Assembly (NCBI GenBank): GCA_030602885.1
Contig: JAUVYV010000018.1
Coordinates: forward strand, 327 to 64,326
Direction: 5' to 3'
From: Phycisphaerales bacterium
GTDB taxonomy: Bacteria > Planctomycetota > Phycisphaerae > Sedimentisphaerales > Anaerobacaceae
Length of the DNA stretch: 64,000 bases
Positions 1,239-61,653 of the stretch are shown here, one piece after another. The number at the start of each line of letters is the position of its first letter. The stretch's first letter is position 1. A model generated the notes under the pieces. The model made no database searches. It saw only the letters and a program-made list of their open reading frames with translations, and was not told where the DNA came from. The position numbers and the translations under genes are program-made.

Positions 1239-1808
1239 TTGAAAGGATGTGTAGTGGCACCTGTTGCAGGGCAGAATCCGGTTTTCACTATCGGTCATAG
1301 CAACGTGCCGATTGACAGGATTATCTTCTTGCTGAAAAAGAGCGAGATTGACGTTGTGGCGGACGTTCGGAGTATGCCATACAGCCGGCATGTTCCCCAG
1401 GCGAACCGAGAGAAGCTCGAAGAGGCGCTTAAGATTGAGGGAATCAGATACATCTTCATGGGAGAGCAGCTCGGAGGACGACCTATGGACATCGAGATTC
1501 ACGATGAGTGGGGCAATCTTGATTACTCCGAGCTTGCCGCTTCAGATTCATTTCACGAAGGACTGAAACGAATAGTCAAAGGCTCAGAACAGTACAATGT
1601 TTGCGTTCTCTGCAGCGAAGAAGACCCTTTAAGATGTCACCGTGGCCTTCTTATATCGCGAGAGTTGGCGAAACTCGGGTTGGAAGTACGGCATATACGA
1701 CATGACGGGAAAGTTGACGGCCAGGCAGGGCTTGAAGAGCGGATACCGCTGGTGCAGAAGGGATTGTTTGACGGGTTTGTGGACAGTACGCCACGAGGGT
1801 GTAAATAG
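1239..1808 (+). CDS. DUF488 family protein.
   Basis: The N-terminal motif TIGHSN and the C-terminal CSEEDPLRCHRGLLI motif are typical of DUF488. The TTG start is uncertain; an in-frame GTG lies at 1254. Confidence 0.7.
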   Translation: MKGCVVAPVAGQNPVFTIGHSNVPIDRIIFLLKKSEIDVVADVRSMPYSRHVPQANREKLEEALKIEGIRYIFMGEQLGGRPMDIEIHDEWGNLDYSELAASDSFHEGLKRIVKGSEQYNVCVLCSEEDPLRCHRGLLISRELAKLGLEVRHIRHDGKVDGQAGLEERIPLVQKGLFDGFVDSTPRGCK

Positions 1809-2379: not shown

Positions 2380-3336
2380 ATGGTCAAAGTATTCATTTCG
2401 TACTCTCACAATGATGAGGCCGACAGGAATGAACTAGAGAAACACCTAAGTGTTCTCAGAAGACAAAAGCTTATAGAGCCATGGAATGACCGAAGGATAC
2501 TGGCAGGAGTAAATTTAGGAAATGAGATTGATAAAAAATTGACTGAATCCGATTTGATACTACTCCTTGTGAGCCCTGATTTTCTTGCGTCAGAATACTG
2601 CTACAGCAAGGAAATGGAGAAAGCCCTGCAAATGAGGAGGGAAGAAATTGCATGGGTAATCCCAATAATACTTGAATACTGTGACTGGAAGAATACTCCG
2701 CTGAAAGACTTACGCGCCTGTCCGAAGGATGGGCAGCCAATCTCTGAGTATCCGAACCCCAACAAGGCTTTTCAGGAAGTCGTCGAAGATATCCGGGAGG
2801 TAATCGATAAGATTCGTGCTGAACGTGCAGATGCCTGTGAGACAGCGCCGAAAGAAGTTTCTGCAAAAGGAGATTTGAAGTTGCAACCCGTCTTTGTTGA
2901 TGATGTTCGGTCGAGCAACCTGAGAATTAAGAAGGGATTTACAGACTACGAAAGGGACTCGTTTAAGAAGGAAGCTTTCGAGTATATAAGAAAGTTCTTC
3001 AAGAATTCACTGGATGAGCTCAAGAAACGAAACCCGGATATTGAATACATATTCGAGAAGGAAGCTAATAAATTCTATGCTACGGTTTACAGGTCGGGAT
3101 GCGAAATCGCAAGTTGCTCAGTAATAAACAGAGTAGGAAACGATTCTTGGCGAGGCATCACTTATTCGCGTTCAAAGCAAGATAATAGCGTTAGTTCGCT
3201 ACTGACAGTTCAAGATGATGGGTATAGCTTGTTCTTGGCACCCACGTTGATGATGGCTAATAGCAATGAGCCGTTGTCTCAGAGAGGTGCTGCCGAGTTA
3301 TATTGGAACAGGTTTATAGAACCATTGCAACAGTGA
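2380..3336 (+). CDS. TIR-domain protein: an N-terminal TIR of ~130 aa plus an unknown ~180-aa C-terminal domain.
   Basis: KVFISYSHNDE, LILLLVSPDFLASEYCYSKE and VIPIILE match the bacterial TIR (TIR_2) pattern. This includes the Glu of the S-x-x-C-x-x-E region. Confidence 0.8.
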   Translation: MVKVFISYSHNDEADRNELEKHLSVLRRQKLIEPWNDRRILAGVNLGNEIDKKLTESDLILLLVSPDFLASEYCYSKEMEKALQMRREEIAWVIPIILEYCDWKNTPLKDLRACPKDGQPISEYPNPNKAFQEVVEDIREVIDKIRAERADACETAPKEVSAKGDLKLQPVFVDDVRSSNLRIKKGFTDYERDSFKKEAFEYIRKFFKNSLDELKKRNPDIEYIFEKEANKFYATVYRSGCEIASCSVINRVGNDSWRGITYSRSKQDNSVSSLLTVQDDGYSLFLAPTLMMANSNEPLSQRGAAELYWNRFIEPLQQ

Positions 3337-41334: not shown

Positions 41335-41476
41335 AAGCGCTTAACATACAACAACCATTGGATAATGGCAAGATGCGTTCTTAAAGTTGTGTGGCGAGTG
41401 TCTGACTACATATTCTGGCGGTTATGCGGATAGCTTTTTCCGGGCAGACCAGTATCGTTTCCACAGGCCGCTGGAA

Positions 41477-41557
41477 CGTACCGACGCAAGAGCCGCCAAT
41501 ATCCTCGGCAACGGAGAAAAAACACTCTACCGAAAAATCAAAGAATATAACCTCTAA
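41477..41557 (+). pseudogene. C-terminal remnant (Fis-type HTH) of a sigma-54-dependent transcriptional activator.
   Basis: Translation gives RTDARAANILGNGEKTLYRKIKEYNL*, the canonical C-terminal DNA-binding tail of an enhancer-binding protein. No AAA+ domain lies upstream. Confidence 0.5.
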
Positions 41558-41572
41558 ACGTGTCTCGTGACC

Positions 41573-41602
41573 CGTGAAGCGGAATATGCTTCACGTTTTT
41601 TT
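41573..41602 (+). terminator. Rho-independent terminator retained after the activator remnant.
   Basis: Stem cgtgaagc / gcttcacg with loop ggaatat, followed by ttttttt. Confidence 0.8.
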
Positions 41603-41763
41603 CTTTGCCTTTTCACTTCTTTTGTGTTATTTTACTTCCCTGAATGCGTGATGCGGACATCTTGAAAAGTGCAGCAAAATATGAGATAAGAAAATTGAAC
41701 CGAAGCAGCGGCTAAATTGGCAACAAAACGTGTGAAACTATTGCAAATGTTAACCAAAAAAAT

Positions 41764-42003
41764 ATGCAAAGAAAAAATCGAAAGCTTCGCTTGATGTGGC
41801 TTCTTTACATTATTAAGGAGAGGGAAAAGTTTTACACGGGAATAACCACCGATCTCAAAAATCGCTTACACCAACATGGTAACCCTCCATTGCTTTATAA
41901 AGAGCCTTTTCAAAATAAACATCAAGCTGCGCGAAGAGAAAGGCAGATTAAGGGCTGGTCAAAAGCAAAGAAACAAGACTTAATCACAGGACTCATTAGG
42001 TGA
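41764..42003 (+). CDS. GIY-YIG nuclease family protein (short UPF0213-like).
   Basis: LYIIKEREKFYTGITTDLKNRLHQH...RRERQIKGWSKAKKQDLI. The gene is AT-rich like the adjacent island. The true start may be the Met at 41794. Confidence 0.7.
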   Translation: MQRKNRKLRLMWLLYIIKEREKFYTGITTDLKNRLHQHGNPPLLYKEPFQNKHQAARRERQIKGWSKAKKQDLITGLIR

Positions 42004-42101
42004 GTTTACACTGAGGAGCACAGAGACGAAGTGAGCCCTGCTCGGAAAGCTTCTAATGTTTCACTGTCCGCAGGGCTCGAACCATACAAGAACGTTGACA
42101 T

Positions 42102-44993
42102 TTATTTCGCTTTTTCAGCAAGCTTAAAGTATAAATCTTTGAAATCATATATATGCTTACGGCCATAATTATCTGCCAAAAGCATTGCTTCTTTTCGAAT
42201 CTCTTCTACATCTTTATAATCATTCTGTAGTTGTTCAACATGCTGTATAAATTCTGCAAGTTTTTCTTTGTAAATGGAATAATACATAGGCATCTGCTCA
42301 TCATTCACTGCTTTATTCAAACATTTCAAGGCTATAAGTTCATTCCCCTTTGAAGTATCTAAAACGCCTTTTATAAAATCGGTTACTCGCCAATGTTTAC
42401 CAAATCTTCCACCGAGTAATTCTAACGTTTTATAAAGCAATTCGAATGTTTTTTCAGCTTCTATTGGTGAATCTTTCACCCATTTTACAAACTTTTCTGC
42501 TTCTTCTCTGTTCGCCTCTGGGTTTTGTTCAATTTCTTTAATCCTTTCCTCCCAGTACCTCTCCAACCTTTTAGCTATTTCTCCCTCGTCTTTTTTCTCT
42601 TTTATGGCTGTAAACCCGGTCGTCAAAAATCCTGCCGCTTTCCCTCTCAATTTTGCGGATGCTTTCTTATAAAACTCAACCAAAATAGGATCATCATATT
42701 CAATCCATGAATTAAAAAATCCTATCATTAAATGTTCTACAAGTCCCTCATCAGGCTCTTTGTCATGCTTCCCATAGATACCAGTTCCAATTTTACTGAC
42801 TGCATGCATATATTTCCCGCGCTTTTCTAAATCCTCGAAAATTGTCTTATAGGGCCTGCTCCATGTTATATAAGAACCCCATAAAACATCCCATGTTTTG
42901 TCATCCTTCTCATCAAATATGTCGTCTAATTTACCTTCTACCCATTTTTCTTCGAGACCGTATACTTGAGGAAACCAAACACCCAAGACGCACCTTATCC
43001 TTTCGTCTTCGATTTTATCAATCACTTCTTCAAGCACACTACGGATTCTCGCACTCCATTGTTTCTCATAATTCTTTTTATTTTGATTTATAGAAGCTAA
43101 ACCGAATTTCACAACAAGTGAAAATGCTTTTCCTGCCACACAGTTAGCGCTCCTCTGAAATGGGTCCTGTCCGATTTCACTTATTTCTCTTTCATCTTTA
43201 TATCTTACCAATGGCTCAATGATCCCCCAAATCACTTCTCCATTTTCTGTTATTTGCTTTGTTTTTATTTCTTTGTCTTCAAATATACCCTCTATAATAT
43301 AAATTATTGAATTATATACTCCTTCATAATCCTTATTCAAACCCTGTTTATTTACAACATATTTAGCATGATCAATAAATCTTACTAAACTTTCATCTTC
43401 AATCTTTTTCTCTCGCAAAACATTCCAAGCCCCATGAAAATATCTTTTCAGAAAAATAGGTTTTAGTTTAATTATCTCTTCATCTTTCAGTTTGGAATAA
43501 TCATCTATTCTTTGTTGTGCGACTTTCTCGAAAACACCTTCTAATCCTTCTTCTGGGGTATGAAAAAAGCTCTCTTTCTTCTTATCTATCTTCCACCTTG
43601 TGGCATCGCACAAATATTCTATTGCTTCTTTGGGCTCCATCTTACACATTTCATCTACGGTAATAGGTGCCCCCTCTGTTTCTGCTATATCCATCCCTTC
43701 CCCAAGATGAGGCCTTGGTGCAAGAATTTCATCGTCAGCTTCGCTTTTCTCTTTATATTCTTTATAAAGCTCGGGATAACTTTCTTTAACTAAAAACAGT
43801 TCTCTCGCCTTTCTTGAATTCTCTATTGTTTCAAAATCTTTATCAGTAGCTTCCCTTCTTTCTCGTTCCTTAAACCATTTTGATATTCTCTTTTTTTCTT
43901 CCTCATCAATTTTATTTTCTTCTTCTACCCAATTTTCAAAAACTTTCTTTGATTCCGTGCTGATCTCCTCAAATTTGTCATTTAGTAATAGCCTATATTC
44001 ATACCACCAGTAACTCTTCTCTAAAAACTCTGGATTTCCAATTATTGAATTAATCCTTTCTGTCTCCATACCAGCAGGTGCAATTCTCAGCAAATACATA
44101 ATAATCCGTTGGAATACAACTTTGTTTAGACCTCCAAGATAATCCAACATCTCCCCAAAATGTTCAGGTTCTTTTTCAATGACCGCTTTTCCTATTTCAC
44201 ATATGCCTCCCACAAGTATAGCTACAATGTCTCTTTCGAACCTATCACCAATTTGGTCAACCCTCTCAATTGTTATGTTAAAACCGCTCTCAAGTCCATA
44301 ATTTTCGCTGTCAAGTTCCTCAAGACCTTTATTAAATGTATCCGCCAACAGCTTTGCCGCCCTTAATGGGTCAATCTCCCATAGTTTTTTGTAATTCTTG
44401 AATACTAACTCTTGATAGTGATACTCCTCGAATCTTGCTCTTAGGTCACTTGTCCCCTTCTCTCCCTTCCATACCTCAAGCAGCATCTCTGCTATCACAA
44501 AAGCTTTATCTGTCTCAATATCAGCAAGTTGCCTCATAACCTTGGCTGCCGAGTCGCCAACAAAGTACCAAATCTTATTAACACGTCTTTCCAAAAGTTT
44601 TCTGGCTAAAGCACTCGCCTCACTTACGAACTCAGGTCTTTTTTCCAAAAGATCCAGTAATGTATCGAGGGATTTGTGTTGAACAAACCCGTCTTTCGCA
44701 TCTATTCCTGAAATAATGTCAATAACATCTTCCGGAACCTGTTCAACAACCTTTGATAAATAAACTGCCTTCATCCTACCAACTCTGCTAACTTCATCAT
44801 CTTGTAATTCATTAAACTCTCCAGCTTCTTTTAGAATTTTCACCCATTCTCCATTTTCACACTTATCGTAAAAGTATACTGCCAATGCTTCATCATCCCT
44901 GATTATTGTAAGCAGAACATTAAATTCGACTGGAGCAGGCTCCATATTCATTAAAACATCAAGCTTTTTTGCTTTATTATAAAAATCTTTCAT
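42102..44993 (-). CDS. Large (963 aa) all-alpha, HEAT/ARM-like repeat protein of unknown function. It is the second gene of the island operon.
   Basis: The long ORF is uninterrupted in a strongly AT-rich segment. I can see no Walker A motif and no nuclease, protease or kinase motif. The sequence is rich in K, E, W and Y, with amphipathic-helix periodicity. Its ATG overlaps the upstream stop codon (ATGA at 44990-44993). Confidence 0.7.
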   Translation of the reverse strand: MKDFYNKAKKLDVLMNMEPAPVEFNVLLTIIRDDEALAVYFYDKCENGEWVKILKEAGEFNELQDDEVSRVGRMKAVYLSKVVEQVPEDVIDIISGIDAKDGFVQHKSLDTLLDLLEKRPEFVSEASALARKLLERRVNKIWYFVGDSAAKVMRQLADIETDKAFVIAEMLLEVWKGEKGTSDLRARFEEYHYQELVFKNYKKLWEIDPLRAAKLLADTFNKGLEELDSENYGLESGFNITIERVDQIGDRFERDIVAILVGGICEIGKAVIEKEPEHFGEMLDYLGGLNKVVFQRIIMYLLRIAPAGMETERINSIIGNPEFLEKSYWWYEYRLLLNDKFEEISTESKKVFENWVEEENKIDEEEKKRISKWFKERERREATDKDFETIENSRKARELFLVKESYPELYKEYKEKSEADDEILAPRPHLGEGMDIAETEGAPITVDEMCKMEPKEAIEYLCDATRWKIDKKKESFFHTPEEGLEGVFEKVAQQRIDDYSKLKDEEIIKLKPIFLKRYFHGAWNVLREKKIEDESLVRFIDHAKYVVNKQGLNKDYEGVYNSIIYIIEGIFEDKEIKTKQITENGEVIWGIIEPLVRYKDEREISEIGQDPFQRSANCVAGKAFSLVVKFGLASINQNKKNYEKQWSARIRSVLEEVIDKIEDERIRCVLGVWFPQVYGLEEKWVEGKLDDIFDEKDDKTWDVLWGSYITWSRPYKTIFEDLEKRGKYMHAVSKIGTGIYGKHDKEPDEGLVEHLMIGFFNSWIEYDDPILVEFYKKASAKLRGKAAGFLTTGFTAIKEKKDEGEIAKRLERYWEERIKEIEQNPEANREEAEKFVKWVKDSPIEAEKTFELLYKTLELLGGRFGKHWRVTDFIKGVLDTSKGNELIALKCLNKAVNDEQMPMYYSIYKEKLAEFIQHVEQLQNDYKDVEEIRKEAMLLADNYGRKHIYDFKDLYFKLAEKAK

Positions 44994-45820
44994 TCTTCTA
45001 CCTCAATTTCCATCGTTACATTTCTTCCAGGTAAACCAACATCCAAAACAGTTGTTTCAGTTCTTACATAGCGCTTCTTCTCAGTTTCCAAAAGCCATTC
45101 ATTAAGAAAATTTTTGATATACTTCCGAAATTCTGTGATTTCTTCAAACTTTCCGAAAAAAACTATTTTCTCCTCTTTAAGCCGCTCTTTGAATTGTTTA
45201 ACCTTATCGAGTTGTTCGTCAGGTTTTTCCCATCTATCCTCGTTAACTTTTTTGAAATAAACACCTATCTTACACATTCGAAACTTCTTGCTTTTCAGAT
45301 GTTCTTTCAGAAGGGCCTCAGCTATATAAAATTCCTCCTCACTCCCAGAGGAGAACGGCCAGTCGTCGTCATTACTTGGTAGAGAACCCCATCTATCATA
45401 TAATATCAATATGTAACTATCGCACCTAATAAGATGTTTATTGATATATTCCTGTGGTCTACCATACGCTGAAGGAAAATCTCCATAAGCTACATGACGA
45501 AAATAAATGTCTAATTGCTTTGCATATCCCTCATTAATTTCAGTAATCTCATCACACATTGCTTTCCGCTCATCTTCTAATCCACTCGGTGATCCAATGA
45601 ATATTTTGAAAATCCTGTCATTTCTATCTCTTCCATCTGTTTTAACTAACCATGTTGGCTCTGGTATCTCTCCAATTTTCTTTTTCCATTTATTTTTCAG
45701 GATAAAATAAATTATTACCCCCAATATTATGAGTACTGCCACTATTAGAAGACTAAAAATAAAATTCTCCACTACGGTATTCTGTGAATTTATTTGTGCT
45801 TGTAAAATACTCATAAGCAA
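44990..45820 (-). CDS. Single-pass membrane protein with a cytoplasmic DUF4062-like (TIR-like / nucleoside 2-deoxyribosyltransferase-like) domain.
   Basis: The TM helix is NFIFSLLIVAVLIILGVIIYFIL, followed by KNKWKKK. IFIGSPSGLEDERKA...CDSYILILYDRWGS...SGSEEEFYIAEA...VYFKK parallels the DUF4062 pattern as I recall it (vFlSStf.DL..eR...sDvfvlilg.rYGs...SyTelEy..A). The start is TTG at 45820 or ATG at 45814. Confidence 0.65.
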   Translation of the reverse strand: MLMSILQAQINSQNTVVENFIFSLLIVAVLIILGVIIYFILKNKWKKKIGEIPEPTWLVKTDGRDRNDRIFKIFIGSPSGLEDERKAMCDEITEINEGYAKQLDIYFRHVAYGDFPSAYGRPQEYINKHLIRCDSYILILYDRWGSLPSNDDDWPFSSGSEEEFYIAEALLKEHLKSKKFRMCKIGVYFKKVNEDRWEKPDEQLDKVKQFKERLKEEKIVFFGKFEEITEFRKYIKNFLNEWLLETEKKRYVRTETTVLDVGLPGRNVTMEIEVEE

Positions 45821-46391
45821 GCTTCTAAACTTTTTTTAAAGCTACAAATTAACCGCAATCTCCTCCCACGCCAAACATTAACTTTAAAATCAAAAAACTC
45901 CGCACCACACCATCAACAAACCTCAATTTACCACAAATTCTTTCGTGAAGAATTTAGAACATCCTCAACTTTTCAAATATTCTCAATGAAGTTTCCGCTT
46001 CCTAAGTGTAATTTATAATTATATCTTATTCTAACATATCCGCAACCCAAAAAACCCGCGATTTAATTCTGTCCTCTGACTTCTGTCTTCTGACCTCTGC
46101 CTCTTTACTTTCTTTCGTGTCTTTTGGTCAATTTTGGCTAAGTGTAGCGCAATTTACGTCACTTTTCGTTCATTTTTGCTCATTTTTGCGCATTTTCACC
46201 CACTTTTGGCGCACTCTTGCCCCGCACGAAATAGGCCACTGCCGCAATTTGGTGCGGGGAAATGGTCGACCAAATGCGCAAGCCGGAGCTTGCCTGCCGT
46301 CCATTCGGCGGGCAAAGCGGAGGTCCTGAGCGAAGGCCCCAAGGGCCGAAGTCGAAGGAGCTGGCCCCCGAAAAGGCGAAATTCATACGAA

Positions 46392-46537
46392 CGGTTGAAA
46401 CGATCGTTTAGCGCAAATGCGCAAGGGTTTAAAACTTAAAATCCAAATTCCAATTTTTTTTTTACTCTTGTCTGCATAAGCACTTACGCAAATCGGCTGC
46501 GCCGAAAAGGGCGAATTTTCGCATCAAACGCGCAACT
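46392..46537. repeat. Dispersed ~145-bp repeat, copy 2, inverted relative to 9-153.
   Basis: See the feature at 9-153. The shared core includes cttgtctgcataagcacttacgcaaatcggctgcgccgaaaagggcgaattttcgc. Confidence 0.8.
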
Positions 46538-46898
46538 CGACGCTAATTACGGGGGGCGCTTTAACCCCTGATGAAGCGTATATACAGAAAGTGAATACAG
46601 TATCCTAAATTCGCTCGTCTCGGCGAAGGCCGAAGCCGTAGCCGGGGAGGCTTCAACAATGCCCACGCATTTACAAGATGTTACCTTTTATTTCTCAGCC
46701 CTTGAACTTTTTCAAAAATCAGTGTCAATCTGTGTAAATCTGTGTCTAAAAAACAAACCGCCTATCCTGCCCAACTTAACTTGCTGGCAATTTACAACCT
46801 TTTTATGCAAAACAAACCCAATGTCAAAATTATTAGACAACATTTAACTCTATGCGCAAAAAGGACTTACAGAAAATTTCTTGGAAAATGCCGCAAAA

Positions 46899-46956
46899 AA
46901 ACAAACCCAAACAAACCCAATTCAAACCCAAAACAAACCCAATTCAAACCCAATTT
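46899..46956. repeat. Short tandem repeat (caaaccc-type words).
   Basis: acaaacccaaacaaacccaattcaaacccaaaacaaacccaattcaaacccaattt. Confidence 0.8.
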
Positions 46957-47003
46957 CGGAGCGCAGTTTACCCGCCGCAGGAGAAAAATGCCGATTCTAA
47001 ATT

Positions 47004-59277: not shown

Positions 59278-59586
59278 ATGCCCTTTGAGTACTGGGGTTA
59301 TCAGTTTGAGGGAGCGTACACCTTGCCTGATCTTTTGAAGTCGAACGCCGGAGTCTACGTTATCTGGTGTGAAAGCGAAGGCAACTGGACTGTGCTTGAC
59401 GTTGGGGAAGCTGCCGACGTGAAGAAGCGGGTCAAGAACCATGACCGAACTCGCTGCTGGGAAGAGCATTGTCGAGGCACAATTTATTATTCAGCAACCT
59501 ATACGCCAAGTCTCCAACAGGAAGATAGAATGAAGATAGAAGAAAGAATAAGGAGCTTGGCAAGTCCACCATGCGGTAGCCGCTAG
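59278..59586 (+). CDS. Hypothetical 102-aa protein, with a weak GIY-YIG-like N-terminal pattern.
   Basis: An aaagga RBS is present. AGVYVIW...LDVGEAADVKKRVKNH loosely resembles the GIY...YIG...R..H pattern. The family call is tentative. Confidence 0.4.
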   Translation: MPFEYWGYQFEGAYTLPDLLKSNAGVYVIWCESEGNWTVLDVGEAADVKKRVKNHDRTRCWEEHCRGTIYYSATYTPSLQQEDRMKIEERIRSLASPPCGSR

Positions 59587-59755
59587 GGTATTGTTCCCTC
59601 TTGGTTGCCATGTGTGATGCAGCGATTGAAGGCAAATATGAGAGGCATGTTTGAAGACAGAAGAATCAACGAGATTATGAAAGCAGCCAACGGCGGACTT
59701 GTCACTTTCAAGCCGTACATTCGTAAGCCAAGCATTTGACGGGGAATCGTGAGTC

Positions 59756-60667
59756 ATGGATCAACCATACGGAGGGATTAGACTGGACATCCCAACGATC
59801 AACGATGATCCTGGAGATTTTGACAGACTCTTCGGACTCTGGCAGGTGGTCAACGATTCTTGTGGCGACGTGACGTTTGACTTTACACCATGCCGCTTTT
59901 TACGTCCTAATGCGATCGCGTTCCTGGGTGGTTTGGCACGTTTAATTCAAAGCCAGAATCGTTCAGGAACGTTCGATTGGGAGACAGTGAGCGATCCAGT
60001 TCTGGCAATACTCAGACAAAATGGATTTGCTGGCGCCTTTGGATATATACATACTTTAGGAGGGCCTGGCAGCTCAATACCATATCGAGAAGATAGAACT
60101 TATGCAACTGGTGTAGAAAATGATATTATAAACTATCTTAAATTTAATTGGTTAGGCACTGGTTGGGTTCGTGTAACTTCCAGACTTAGAGACGCAATTG
60201 TAGGAAGGGTTTGGGAGATCTACGCTAACGCATTCTTACATGCTAAGTCGAACATTGGGGTCTTTAGTTGTGGCCAGTACTTTTGGCAGATGCATGTTCT
60301 CAAATTAGCTGTGGTAGATTTTGGTGTTGGTATTACAACAAGTGTAAAACAGTATTTTAAGGAAACGCATTCTGCGGAAGAGTTAGATGCAGCAGTTTGT
60401 TTAGAATGGGCATTTCGGGAAAGAACTTCAACAATTAAGGGGGTAGGACGCGGAAATGGGCTTAGTCTTCTTAAAGAATTTGTAAATATTAACCATGGAA
60501 GACTTGAAGTCTACAGCCAAGATGGGTATGCTTTGATCGAAGGCGGAAAAGAAAAATTTAATAACCGACGGAAATATTTTCAAGGAACGCTGGTAAACAT
60601 TACTCTTCGCTGTGATAAGAAGTACTACCAACTTGTTGATGAAGGCCCTTCTGGACCCTTGTTTTAA
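59756..60667 (+). CDS. GHKL-superfamily ATPase / SpoIIAB-RsbW-like Ser/Thr kinase domain protein, with an unknown N-terminal ~100-aa domain.
   Basis: The N-box is WEIYANAFLHAKS. The G1 motif is VVDFGVGI. The G2 motif is GVGRGNGLSLL. Local GC is low. Confidence 0.7.
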   Translation: MDQPYGGIRLDIPTINDDPGDFDRLFGLWQVVNDSCGDVTFDFTPCRFLRPNAIAFLGGLARLIQSQNRSGTFDWETVSDPVLAILRQNGFAGAFGYIHTLGGPGSSIPYREDRTYATGVENDIINYLKFNWLGTGWVRVTSRLRDAIVGRVWEIYANAFLHAKSNIGVFSCGQYFWQMHVLKLAVVDFGVGITTSVKQYFKETHSAEELDAAVCLEWAFRERTSTIKGVGRGNGLSLLKEFVNINHGRLEVYSQDGYALIEGGKEKFNNRRKYFQGTLVNITLRCDKKYYQLVDEGPSGPLF

Positions 60668-60682
60668 TAAGGAGAAATCAGG

Positions 60683-61030
60683 ATGAACGTAGAAATAAAA
60701 ACTTTGGTGGGTGATAGTTGTGTGACATCAGAAGATGGACAGCGTGTTTACGATGTAATTTATCCCAAGCTGGCAGCCGGTGAGTCAGTTTGTTTGAATT
60801 TCTCCAATATACGGGTTTTTGCGTCTCCCTTCTTCAATTTTGCCATCGGGCAGCTTCTTAAGGACTTAGAACCCGATGCTCTGAACCAGCTGCTGAAAGT
60901 AGAGAAAATTACTGCTGATGGCTTGCTCATATGCCAGCAAGTCGTAAAAAATGCCAAGGAATACTACAGGAATCCGGAGACAAAGAAAGCCGTCGATGAC
61001 ATTCTGAAACAACAAGCGGAGGACGAGTAA
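60683..61030 (+). CDS. DUF4325 / STAS-like domain protein.
   Basis: The 115-aa protein has SVCLNFSNIRVFASPFFNFAIGQL, the ...v.lDF.gV....sSF..e.ig.l pattern of STAS-like DUF4325 proteins. These usually sit beside a GHKL ATPase. Confidence 0.65.
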   Translation: MNVEIKTLVGDSCVTSEDGQRVYDVIYPKLAAGESVCLNFSNIRVFASPFFNFAIGQLLKDLEPDALNQLLKVEKITADGLLICQQVVKNAKEYYRNPETKKAVDDILKQQAEDE

Positions 61031-61653
61031 TGCCTGTAAACTATGTGATTGGCGCGGATATCATAGATATCAGAGTAGATACACCAGGGCCCGAAGACGT
61101 TTTCCTCGTGGATTCAAATGTCTGGTACTGGATGGCCTACACCAAAGCAAGCCTTGCGAACAAACCGCCGTGGCCGCAACAAATTCACGACTATCCTACT
61201 TTCGTAAATAAAGCCATTGGTGTAAGCGCAAAGCTGTACCGATGTGGGCTATCATTTGCAGAGTTAGCACATCGCATCGAAAGAACAGAACTGGAAATCT
61301 TCGAGAAGACCTTTGGGCGAATCTACCCTAAAGAATACCGCCACAACCACCCTTCACAGCGCTCAAATGTAGTGAGTGAAGTTAAAGCTGCGTGGGCACA
61401 GGTCAAGACAATGGCATCGTCTCTGGATGTTACGATTAATGATGCCGTAGCGGATGCCGCGATTGGCCGTTTTGATAATGAGTGCGTCGATGGATATGAC
61501 CTGTTCTTCTTGGAGGCAATGACTAACGAGAAAGTAATCAAGATCATTACGGATGATGGAGACTTCGCGACTGTATCAGAGATACAAGTCTTCACTGCAA
61601 ACCAGAACGTTGTCACTGCCGCACAGAGCCAAGGCAAGCTCGTAACGAGATAA
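61030..61653 (+). CDS. PIN-like nuclease domain protein.
   Basis: Four acidic positions fall in PIN order: FLVDSNVW, SFAELAHRIE, DGYDLFFLEA and IITDDGDF. The ATG overlaps the upstream TAA stop codon (TAATG). Confidence 0.6.
   Translation: MPVNYVIGADIIDIRVDTPGPEDVFLVDSNVWYWMAYTKASLANKPPWPQQIHDYPTFVNKAIGVSAKLYRCGLSFAELAHRIERTELEIFEKTFGRIYPKEYRHNHPSQRSNVVSEVKAAWAQVKTMASSLDVTINDAVADAAIGRFDNECVDGYDLFFLEAMTNEKVIKIITDDGDFATVSEIQVFTANQNVVTAAQSQGKLVTR

Follow-up and report, generated by a model that had tools for sequence, protein, structure and literature searches.

DUF4062 was an orphan domain until 2026. In that year three preprints showed it to be a TIR-like NADase (an enzyme that hydrolyses nicotinamide adenine dinucleotide, NAD+), renamed it NIR, and demonstrated that it depletes NAD+ in anti-phage defence. 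The systems concerned include Swarozyc (KpSwz), for which the phage portal is the activator (10.64898/2026.05.01.722283), Evangelion, a DUF4062 defence system (10.64898/2026.06.25.731849), and NIR-Avs2, Vulcan (a NIR-HEAT fusion) and Vesta (NIR plus a phosphatase) (Le Mouellic et al. 2026, 10.64898/2026.09.04.749371). NAD+ depletion by NIR has been demonstrated experimentally in four independent system types, and mutation of the catalytic Glu abolishes defence by PsAvs2, Vulcan, Vesta and KpSwz. By cryo-electron microscopy, the DUF4062 domain of KpSwz has a five-stranded TIR-like fold (10.64898/2026.05.01.722283). DSR1 is a SIR2-based NAD+-depleting defence protein (Gao 2020, Garb 2022). Its sensor is homologous to the Avs7 sensor and occurs in about 9,100 proteins, with effectors that comprise NADases, nucleases, kinases, 'TM' (transmembrane) and unknowns, and also in split forms; SeAvs7 and EcDsr1 are both triggered by phage major capsid protein (PMC13581612, Nature 2026). 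A bilobed shape has been reported for Dsr1/Avs7. Here we analyse a 64,000-nucleotide stretch (the window) of contig JAUVYV010000018.1, from a Phycisphaerales bacterium, in which a DUF4062/NIR protein of 274 amino acids (aa) and a 963-aa helical protein are encoded by overlapping genes in an AT-rich island at 41600-46060.

The pair is probably a two-gene anti-phage module: a split DSR1-like system in which SIR2 has been replaced by a membrane-anchored NIR NADase. This is a new combination of two recently described modules and not a wholly new system. An earlier inspection of the letters without database searches (the sequence-only reading) had proposed a horizontally acquired, split module of a helical sensor and a membrane-tethered TIR-like effector; co-conservation, partner swaps and foreign composition strongly support this proposal. 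It had also held the pair to be undescribed and to match no named system, which was overstated, as the DSR1-type sensor and the NIR effector are both known. The main texts of the 2026 NIR and Dsr1/Avs7 papers contain neither a DUF4062-Dsr1 pairing nor a transmembrane NIR protein. The clade of the window pair may already be catalogued under the 'unknown' effector class ('Unknown-2') of the PMC13581612 survey.

The 963-aa protein is most likely, by profile similarity, a DSR1/Avs7-type sensor without a fused effector. It matches the PADLOC Dsr1 profile PDLC04166 (E 3.4e-31) in one 685-residue stretch: its residues 155-839 align with positions 469-1120 of the 1227 in the profile, the part that comes after the SIR2 domain. 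Among the 23 aligned relatives, 20 match the same profile (best E 3.1e-43). The sequence-only reading had mentioned DSR2 as a mere analogy; the protein is instead a homologue of the DSR1 sensor region. Its description there as all-helical and free of a P-loop was correct: the AlphaFold2 model consists entirely of helices (predicted local distance difference test score, pLDDT, 86.9), and searches for Walker A, HExxH, Pfam, NCBIfam and NTPase families gave no match. The sensor family is large. Searching 1.84 billion representative proteins with the family profile returned 4,306 relatives (1,449 with E <= 1e-30), with representatives clustered at 50% identity. They are patchily spread over Planctomycetota, Bacillota, Nitrospira, Dehalococcoidia and ANME-1 archaea. 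On plasmids, the tblastn matches were limited to remote haloarchaeal fragments of the sensor and to DUF4062 proteins whose C-terminal regions are unrelated.

The 274-aa protein is a predicted NADase effector, by analogy with the characterised NIR proteins. The DUF4062 pattern noticed in the letters is borne out by Pfam: PF13271 matches residues 72-164 with 33.4 bits (cut-off 24.7, E 5.4e-8), and it also matches the relatives L001 and P0034/P0035 (loci are given here as L numbers, proteins as P numbers). The N-terminus of the PADLOC candidate PDC-S60 (906 aa) is matched as well (3.1e-12). NCBIfam gave no match, nor did PDB sequences when searched with single proteins and family profiles. In the AlphaFold2 model (pLDDT 77, mostly 85-95 in the domain core) five parallel strands, 68-74, 104-109, 133-138, 182-188 and 219-223, alternate with helices. 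This five-strand topology agrees with the KpSwz TIR-like fold described in 10.64898/2026.05.01.722283. Foldseek against the PDB gave weak matches to flavodoxin, nucleoside 2'-deoxyribosyltransferase (NDT) and the SfSTING TIR domain; these are compatible with a TIR-like fold in the model but not decisive. A long helix (226-252) follows the domain, and then a disordered tail of low confidence.

Residues S75-P76-S77, R83, G118, Q121, N125, S156-G157 and E160, among others, are invariant in the homologue alignments, of which A3 holds nine sequences. E160 lies about 93 residues into the domain and is predicted, from this position, to correspond to the catalytic Glu of characterised NIR proteins (E97, E98, E103, E108). 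The single N-terminal transmembrane (TM) helix and its positively charged patch had also been recognised from the letters. The mean Kyte-Doolittle hydropathy is 3.19 over the 19-mer at residues 21-39, and the AlphaFold2 helix across this segment spans residues 3-46. The motif KNKWKKK follows the TM helix and, by the positive-inside rule, places the NIR domain on the predicted cytoplasmic side. Of the 18 NIR partners tested, that of the window included, 13 have a TM helix, and a 14th (L041) gains one if its start is re-called upstream; the NIR partners at L001 and L006 are soluble and have none. In the tail, the motif R-x4-V-x-D/S-x-G aligns in three NIR partners (window, L001, L006) and in an unrelated TM partner (L007), and is absent from SIR2 partners. 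We speculate that it is a candidate sensor-docking element.

Effector and sensor genes occur together in every context examined, as the sequence-only reading had asked to be checked. All NIR homologues of the window subtype with retrievable context have a 956-981-aa sensor directly downstream; these loci (window/L011, L001=L015 and L020 from Sedimentisphaerales, L006, L013, L014, L041 and L042/L043) represent at least six distinct lineages. At L012 the sensor has 730 aa and is interrupted by the contig end. The 4-bp overlap, or a tight junction, is also seen at L004, L007, L008, L017, L020, L023 and L041. No third gene is conserved beside the pair in the loci examined.

The partner in front of the sensor is exchangeable. 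Nine sensor relatives have a SIR2_2 gene upstream in place of NIR: L003, L004/5, L008, L009/10, L017 (Pirellulales), L021 and L023 (Sedimentisphaerales), L019 (an ANME-1 archaeon) and L035 (Rubrobacteraceae). The SIR2 proteins of L009 and L019 match positions ~15-215 of the PADLOC Dsr1 model whose C-terminal part is matched by the sensors. Since SIR2 partners and sensors thus match two parts of one model, these pairs are split DSR1-like systems. The window pair is, judged by the same matches, a predicted split-DSR1 scaffold with NIR in the SIR2 position. The order of effector gene and sensor gene mirrors the domain order of fused relatives, which fits fission and fusion at one junction.

SIR2 in the same position also bears on what the NIR domain does. 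The same defence module could use NIR to make a signalling nucleotide, as the TIR of Thoeris does, or to cleave another nucleotide (an N-glycosidase or hydrolase of cytidine monophosphate (CMP), of the NDT fold). DUF4062 lies between the TIR and NDT superfamilies, NDTs are among the Foldseek matches, and the annotation originally given to the Avs2 effector was CMP hydrolase; Osinski et al. state that DUF4062 activities may exceed NADase, and NAD+ depletion by DSR1 is merely transient, without culture collapse. However, PsAvs2, Vulcan, Vesta, KpSwz, Eva01 and TEP1 all deplete or hydrolyse NAD+, the relatives hold SIR2, itself NAD+-depleting, where the window pair has NIR, and a conserved third gene that might read a signal is missing next to the pair. 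A signalling or other-substrate enzyme is an unlikely alternative to the NADase.

Further modules are found on the same sensor. The commonest N-terminal module of the family is all-helical, ~150-240 aa long and unannotated (P0007, P0010, P0015 and ~50 others); it has an Arg that is invariant within a nearly invariant H-x2-R-E, and a second His. Four of 40 members match, below threshold, the Pfam family pP_pnuc_1, a predicted pPIWI-associated nuclease family. The module is either fused to the sensor or encoded by a separate upstream gene (L027 4343-5002, L033 5265-5951, L037 5187-5951), and for this reason is probably an uncharacterised effector. At L016 and in P0025 an AAA_16/STAND-like ATPase is found on the same sensor lineage. 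In P0001, P0017 and P0023 (L046 6001-9396) the sensor is fused solely to an N-terminal TM helix and a ~150-aa coiled-coil; the P0001 sensor is 56% identical to that of the window. No separate effector gene adjoins P0023, and its TM-coiled-coil module may itself be the effector. At L007 (5177-6004) the partner is a 275-aa protein that has a TM helix at its N-terminus and a domain of no recognised family, and its gene has a 4-bp overlap with the sensor gene. Its tail is R-x4-V-x-S-x-G, common to the NIR partners. It has no Pfam or PADLOC match, and it was ruled out as a divergent NIR by hhalign (probability 0.3%).

Partner types are interleaved on a sensor tree, which is a crude neighbour-joining tree with no support values. 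The window sensor (TM-NIR) groups with P0001 (TM-coiled-coil); nearby are P0004 (soluble NIR), P0007 (helical module), L016 (ATPase) and P0009 (SIR2). In a Methanophagales (ANME-1) metagenome-assembled genome (MAG), L019 602-4413 encodes a SIR2 and sensor pair, the sensor of which is 37% identical to that of the window. This similarity points to a probable transfer of the cassette between domains.

The TM-bearing partners suggest another way of killing. The TM helix could be the killing device, or a second one: the sensor would cluster TM helices and the inner membrane would be perturbed, with NIR having mainly an oligomerisation or regulatory role. The fusions to TM and coiled-coil alone, P0023 without a separate effector, the different TM protein at L007, the retention of the TM helix in 13-14 of 18 NIR partners, and the presence of 'TM' among the effector classes of Dsr1/Avs7-type sensors all favour this. 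On the other hand, a working enzyme is indicated by the TM-bearing subtype, in which neither the catalytic Glu nor the other NIR motifs vary; the soluble partners at L001 and L006 have equally conserved sensors; and a single TM helix is poor at forming pores. We consider killing through the membrane very unlikely in comparison with NAD+ hydrolysis by a membrane-anchored NIR.

The neighbours of the pair differ from locus to locus and are mostly housekeeping genes; the cassettes form small isolated islets. The cassette is AT-richer than its flanks in 17 of 22 loci. The association with defence or mobile genes that the sequence-only reading had proposed for testing is seen in part: L008 adjoins an integrase and a primase, and two loci adjoin restriction-modification genes, but most relatives lie among housekeeping genes. 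In these two, L028 4142-8925 (Acetothermia) and L031 4196-8913 (Binatia), a sensor with a fused helical module comes right after a type I restriction-modification hsdS gene. The spacing is a 2-nt gap at L028 and a 1-nt overlap at L031; the sensor gene is embedded in or appended to the restriction-modification operon.

The isolation of most close relatives, with no known defence genes adjoining, would also be expected if the pair were not immune at all. It would then be a horizontally acquired, membrane-associated scaffold and enzyme with a physiological task, for example turning over NAD or nucleotides, or else a selfish addiction module. But both proteins match models of validated or candidate defence proteins, and immune proteins are characterised by just such swapping as occurs on this one sensor, among SIR2, NIR, nuclease-like, TM and STAND modules. 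Occurrence from Planctomycetota to ANME-1 archaea is patchy, and the position behind hsdS in two loci likewise argues against a non-immune role, which we regard as the least probable of these accounts.

As a putative anti-phage module, the pair resembles several described systems and differs from each. With DSR1 it shares the homologous C-terminal helical sensor, an effector that is N-terminal or upstream, and an NAD+-directed effector (predicted in the window). However, neither protein has a SIR2 match; DSR1 is a single polypeptide, whereas the window pair is two open reading frames (ORFs) overlapping by 4 nt; and the window effector is membrane-anchored, with the sensor match limited to residues 155-839. 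Avs7 has a central STAND NTPase, whereas the 963-aa protein has no Walker A or NTPase family match; the combination of an ATPase with the same sensor lineage in L016/P0025 mirrors the Avs7/Dsr1 relation. Vulcan likewise combines NIR with a large alpha-helical repeat sensor (its repeats recognise a phage protein, whereupon its NIR domain uses up NAD+), but it is one soluble polypeptide with NIR fused to HEAT, in contrast to two genes and a TM anchor. The window sensor has no match at E < 1 to PDC-S60, a possible Vulcan counterpart, and thus none to its C-terminal part, although the PDC-S60 N-terminus is matched by the NIR protein.

Swarozyc and Evangelion have the same effector family, catalytic Glu, and five-stranded core followed by a helical stalk. 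They are single genes whose products sense by way of an indispensable C-terminal auxiliary region, whereas the window effector extends ~50 residues past the NIR core and has a separate conserved 963-aa sensor gene; an N-terminal TM helix is unmentioned in those papers. Vesta is likewise a two-gene operon with a small NIR effector, but its partner is an alkaline phosphatase that is dispensable for defence, and it has no TM anchor; in the window the partner is a sensor solenoid. The pair falls outside DSR1, Vulcan, Swarozyc/Evangelion and Avs7, yet very probably works like them.

The analysis establishes how the genes are arranged, which domains they encode, that the catalytic Glu and the TM helix are conserved, that the two genes strictly co-occur, that effectors are exchanged on one sensor, and that the composition is foreign. 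The NADase activity, complex formation, trigger, role of the membrane anchor and defence phenotype that we infer for the pair would fit together as follows. The 963-aa solenoid would be a cytoplasmic sensor that binds a conserved phage structural protein, with the major capsid protein as precedent. The 274-aa protein would sit in the inner membrane by its one N-terminal helix, with the NIR domain in the cytoplasm. ATGA coupling would keep effector and sensor in fixed proportion. The complex would presumably form through the C-terminal helix and tail of the effector and the N-terminal region of the sensor, which is the junction of the fused relatives. Once the ligand is bound, the NIR domains would be set free or brought to oligomerise, and an activated NIR domain would hydrolyse NAD+ and arrest the infection. 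The anchor may only localise the complex or may add to its toxicity; the latter is suggested by relatives with TM-coiled-coil as their only N-terminal module.

Several points weigh against this account. The NIR papers characterise no membrane-anchored NADase that could serve as a precedent. Triggering by a phage protein is extrapolated by analogy from Dsr1/Avs7, to which the similarity runs through the PADLOC Dsr1 profile. The link to DSR1 is a profile match, and comes from one of three PADLOC Dsr1 profiles. Foldseek and PDB sequence searches yield nothing specific for the sensor: Foldseek against the PDB gives generic HEAT/ARM solenoids (CAND1, karyopherins, condensin) with TM-scores <=0.25; among the 50 matches listed there is no DSR2 and no identified DSR1 or Avs7 structure, and searches against PDB sequences with the single protein and the family profile gave no match. 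A fused NIR-sensor protein is found in none of 90 NIR relatives, so physical coupling is deduced solely from the order and the overlap of the genes. The close relatives are for the most part isolated two-gene islets outside recognisable defence islands; for this reason, the neighbourhood-enrichment argument is weak for the sensor clade. The close homologues all come from uncultured Planctomycetota-type MAGs, and the evidence on the pair and on its close relatives is purely computational.

A broader reading is possible, although we give it a minor chance. The membrane anchor would be an essential part of the mechanism: the sensor would recruit or cluster membrane-bound NIR at the inner membrane, with activation tied in space to a membrane-proximal step of infection or assembly, or with NAD+ depletion and membrane damage combined. 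The sensor clade would be a plug-in receptor for at least six effector types. These would be fused or split, and the separate ones would dock by a short conserved C-terminal tail. Two or three of them would be undescribed effectors: TM-coiled-coil, TM plus unknown domain, and the H-x2-R-E module.

If the NIR-bearing split DSR1-like module is confirmed, the natural exchange of SIR2 for NIR would be direct evolutionary evidence that DSR1-type receptors can use either of two NADase folds interchangeably as their output. A split version, with sensor and effector separable both genetically and biochemically, would be a tool for studying Dsr1/Avs7-type switching, and a membrane-anchored NADase would join the NIR repertoire. 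DSR1-type systems are extended to Planctomycetota and ANME-1 archaea, the immune repertoires of which are poorly charted. No new category of immunity is involved, as papers of 2026 already describe the two modules and also effector exchange as a principle. The chief interest lies in the natural SIR2-to-NIR swap on one sensor and in a separable, membrane-anchored DSR1-type receptor.

Horizontal acquisition of the pair is strongly supported by the foreign composition of the island (Table 1). The G+C (GC) content of 41600-46060 is 36.1%, against 52.5% for the remaining window; the sequence-only reading was right in its estimate of one-third but slightly high in putting the background well over one half. 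All 400-bp steps from 41600 to 46199 have a GC content of 0.30-0.41, and the coding flanks ~0.50-0.58. This profile bears out the limits that had been read by eye, from the terminator to near 46060. No 4.46-kb stretch of the whole window is lower in GC. At third codon positions the GC content is 0.31 in the sensor gene, 0.30 in the DUF4062 gene and 0.40 in the GIY-YIG gene, and 0.63-0.67 in gyrA, PFOR and sua5. The island is ~16 GC points under its flanks, with the third-position value halved. The gene layout, a GIY-YIG gene convergent with a minus-strand pair overlapping as ATGA, is confirmed.

Table 1. Features of the island and its borders (window coordinates)
Feature	Coordinates	Strand	Basis or remark
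Intrinsic-terminator-like hairpin and T-run (hairpin 41573-41595)	41573..41602	+	Terminator scan: 9-bp stem, 5 G-C pairs
GIY-YIG protein gene, 79 aa	41764..42003	+	Pfam PF01541, 3.9e-9; GC 0.39
9-bp inverted repeat, GAGCCCTGC ... GCAGGGCTC	42033..42078	between convergent genes	Read from sequence
963-aa helical protein (putative sensor) gene	42102..44993	-	ORF
ATGA stop/start overlap	44990..44993	-	Checked in sequence
274-aa DUF4062/NIR gene	44990..45814	-	ATG start at 45814
C-terminal helix (226-252) and tail	44993..45139	-	Model; motif R-x4-V-x-D/S-x-G
NIR/DUF4062 Rossmannoid domain, residues 66-225	45140..45619	-	AlphaFold2 model
E160 codon (in SSGSEEEF), predicted catalytic Glu	45335..45337	-	Invariant in alignments A3, A4
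Single N-terminal TM helix, residues 19-40	45695..45760	-	Hydropathy, AlphaFold2
AT-rich upstream region, GC 0.34; right island edge	45815..46060	-	Composition
Tandem array, 7/14-bp units	46067-46104		Tract right of island
Tandem array, 10-11-bp units	46170-46219		Tract right of island
Tandem array, 10-bp units	46717-46746		Tract right of island
Tandem array, 11/22-bp CAAACCCAA-type units	46902-46955		Tract right of island

An alternative start of the DUF4062 gene, TTG at 45820 (ORF 44990-45820), is less likely than the ATG; an identical 274-aa protein (P0027) in NCBI/Logan records is started at ATG. The promoter of the operon presumably lies in the AT-rich region upstream, where a promoter scan gave only weak sigma-70-like matches, not above shuffled expectation. 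The inverted repeat between the convergent genes is a possible bidirectional terminator, weakly suggested; with its 28-nt loop it was not called by the terminator scan.

The GIY-YIG gene is a passenger in the island, outside the conserved two-gene module; like the other two island proteins, its product gave no NCBIfam match. It was considered as a third component of the system and rejected because it is missing from all other loci: no GIY-YIG gene is recorded beside the pair at any other locus with called genes.

At the left edge, the GC drop starts at the hairpin. A short frame at ~41400-41557 (+) terminates in ...AANILGNGEKTLYRKIKEYNL and a stop codon just before it. The tail of this frame (EKTLYRKIKEYNL, also given as FFRADQYRFHRPLERTDARAANILGNGEKTLYRKIKEYNL, each before the stop) reads as the probable decayed C-terminal Fis-type helix-turn-helix of a sigma-54-dependent activator, a gene that may have been replaced or truncated by the island. 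To the right lies an ORF-poor tract (46061-47003) with a GC content of 0.45 and a G+C-rich middle part. It is repeat-dense, as first described, with five short tandem arrays, but is ~0.94 kb long and not 1.2 kb. Neither a tRNA nor an Rfam match was found at the borders of the island and this tract, and the search for att-like direct repeats around the island gave only short chance-level matches; the suggested recombination hotspot is thus without specific support.

Other parts of the window also differ in composition. A gene at 2380-3336 (+) encodes a 318-aa TIR protein with a full-length match to PADLOC ThsB1 (E 3.1e-92) and a match to Pfam TIR_2 (1.4e-15). It lies in a patch of lower GC content (~0.44), beside a DUF488 gene at 1239-1808 (+) that matches the PADLOC candidate PDC-M45B (1e-56). 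From this patch it follows that the window has at least one further defence-type islet. At 59278-61653 (+) four tightly packed genes have a GC content of 0.41-0.44. They encode a 102-aa protein with a weak match to PDC-S14, a 303-aa HATPase_c-like protein with a weak match to the DrmA N-terminus (5.5e-8), a 115-aa DUF4325 STAS-like protein (7e-15), and a 207-aa protein without assignment. This cluster looks like another acquired module.

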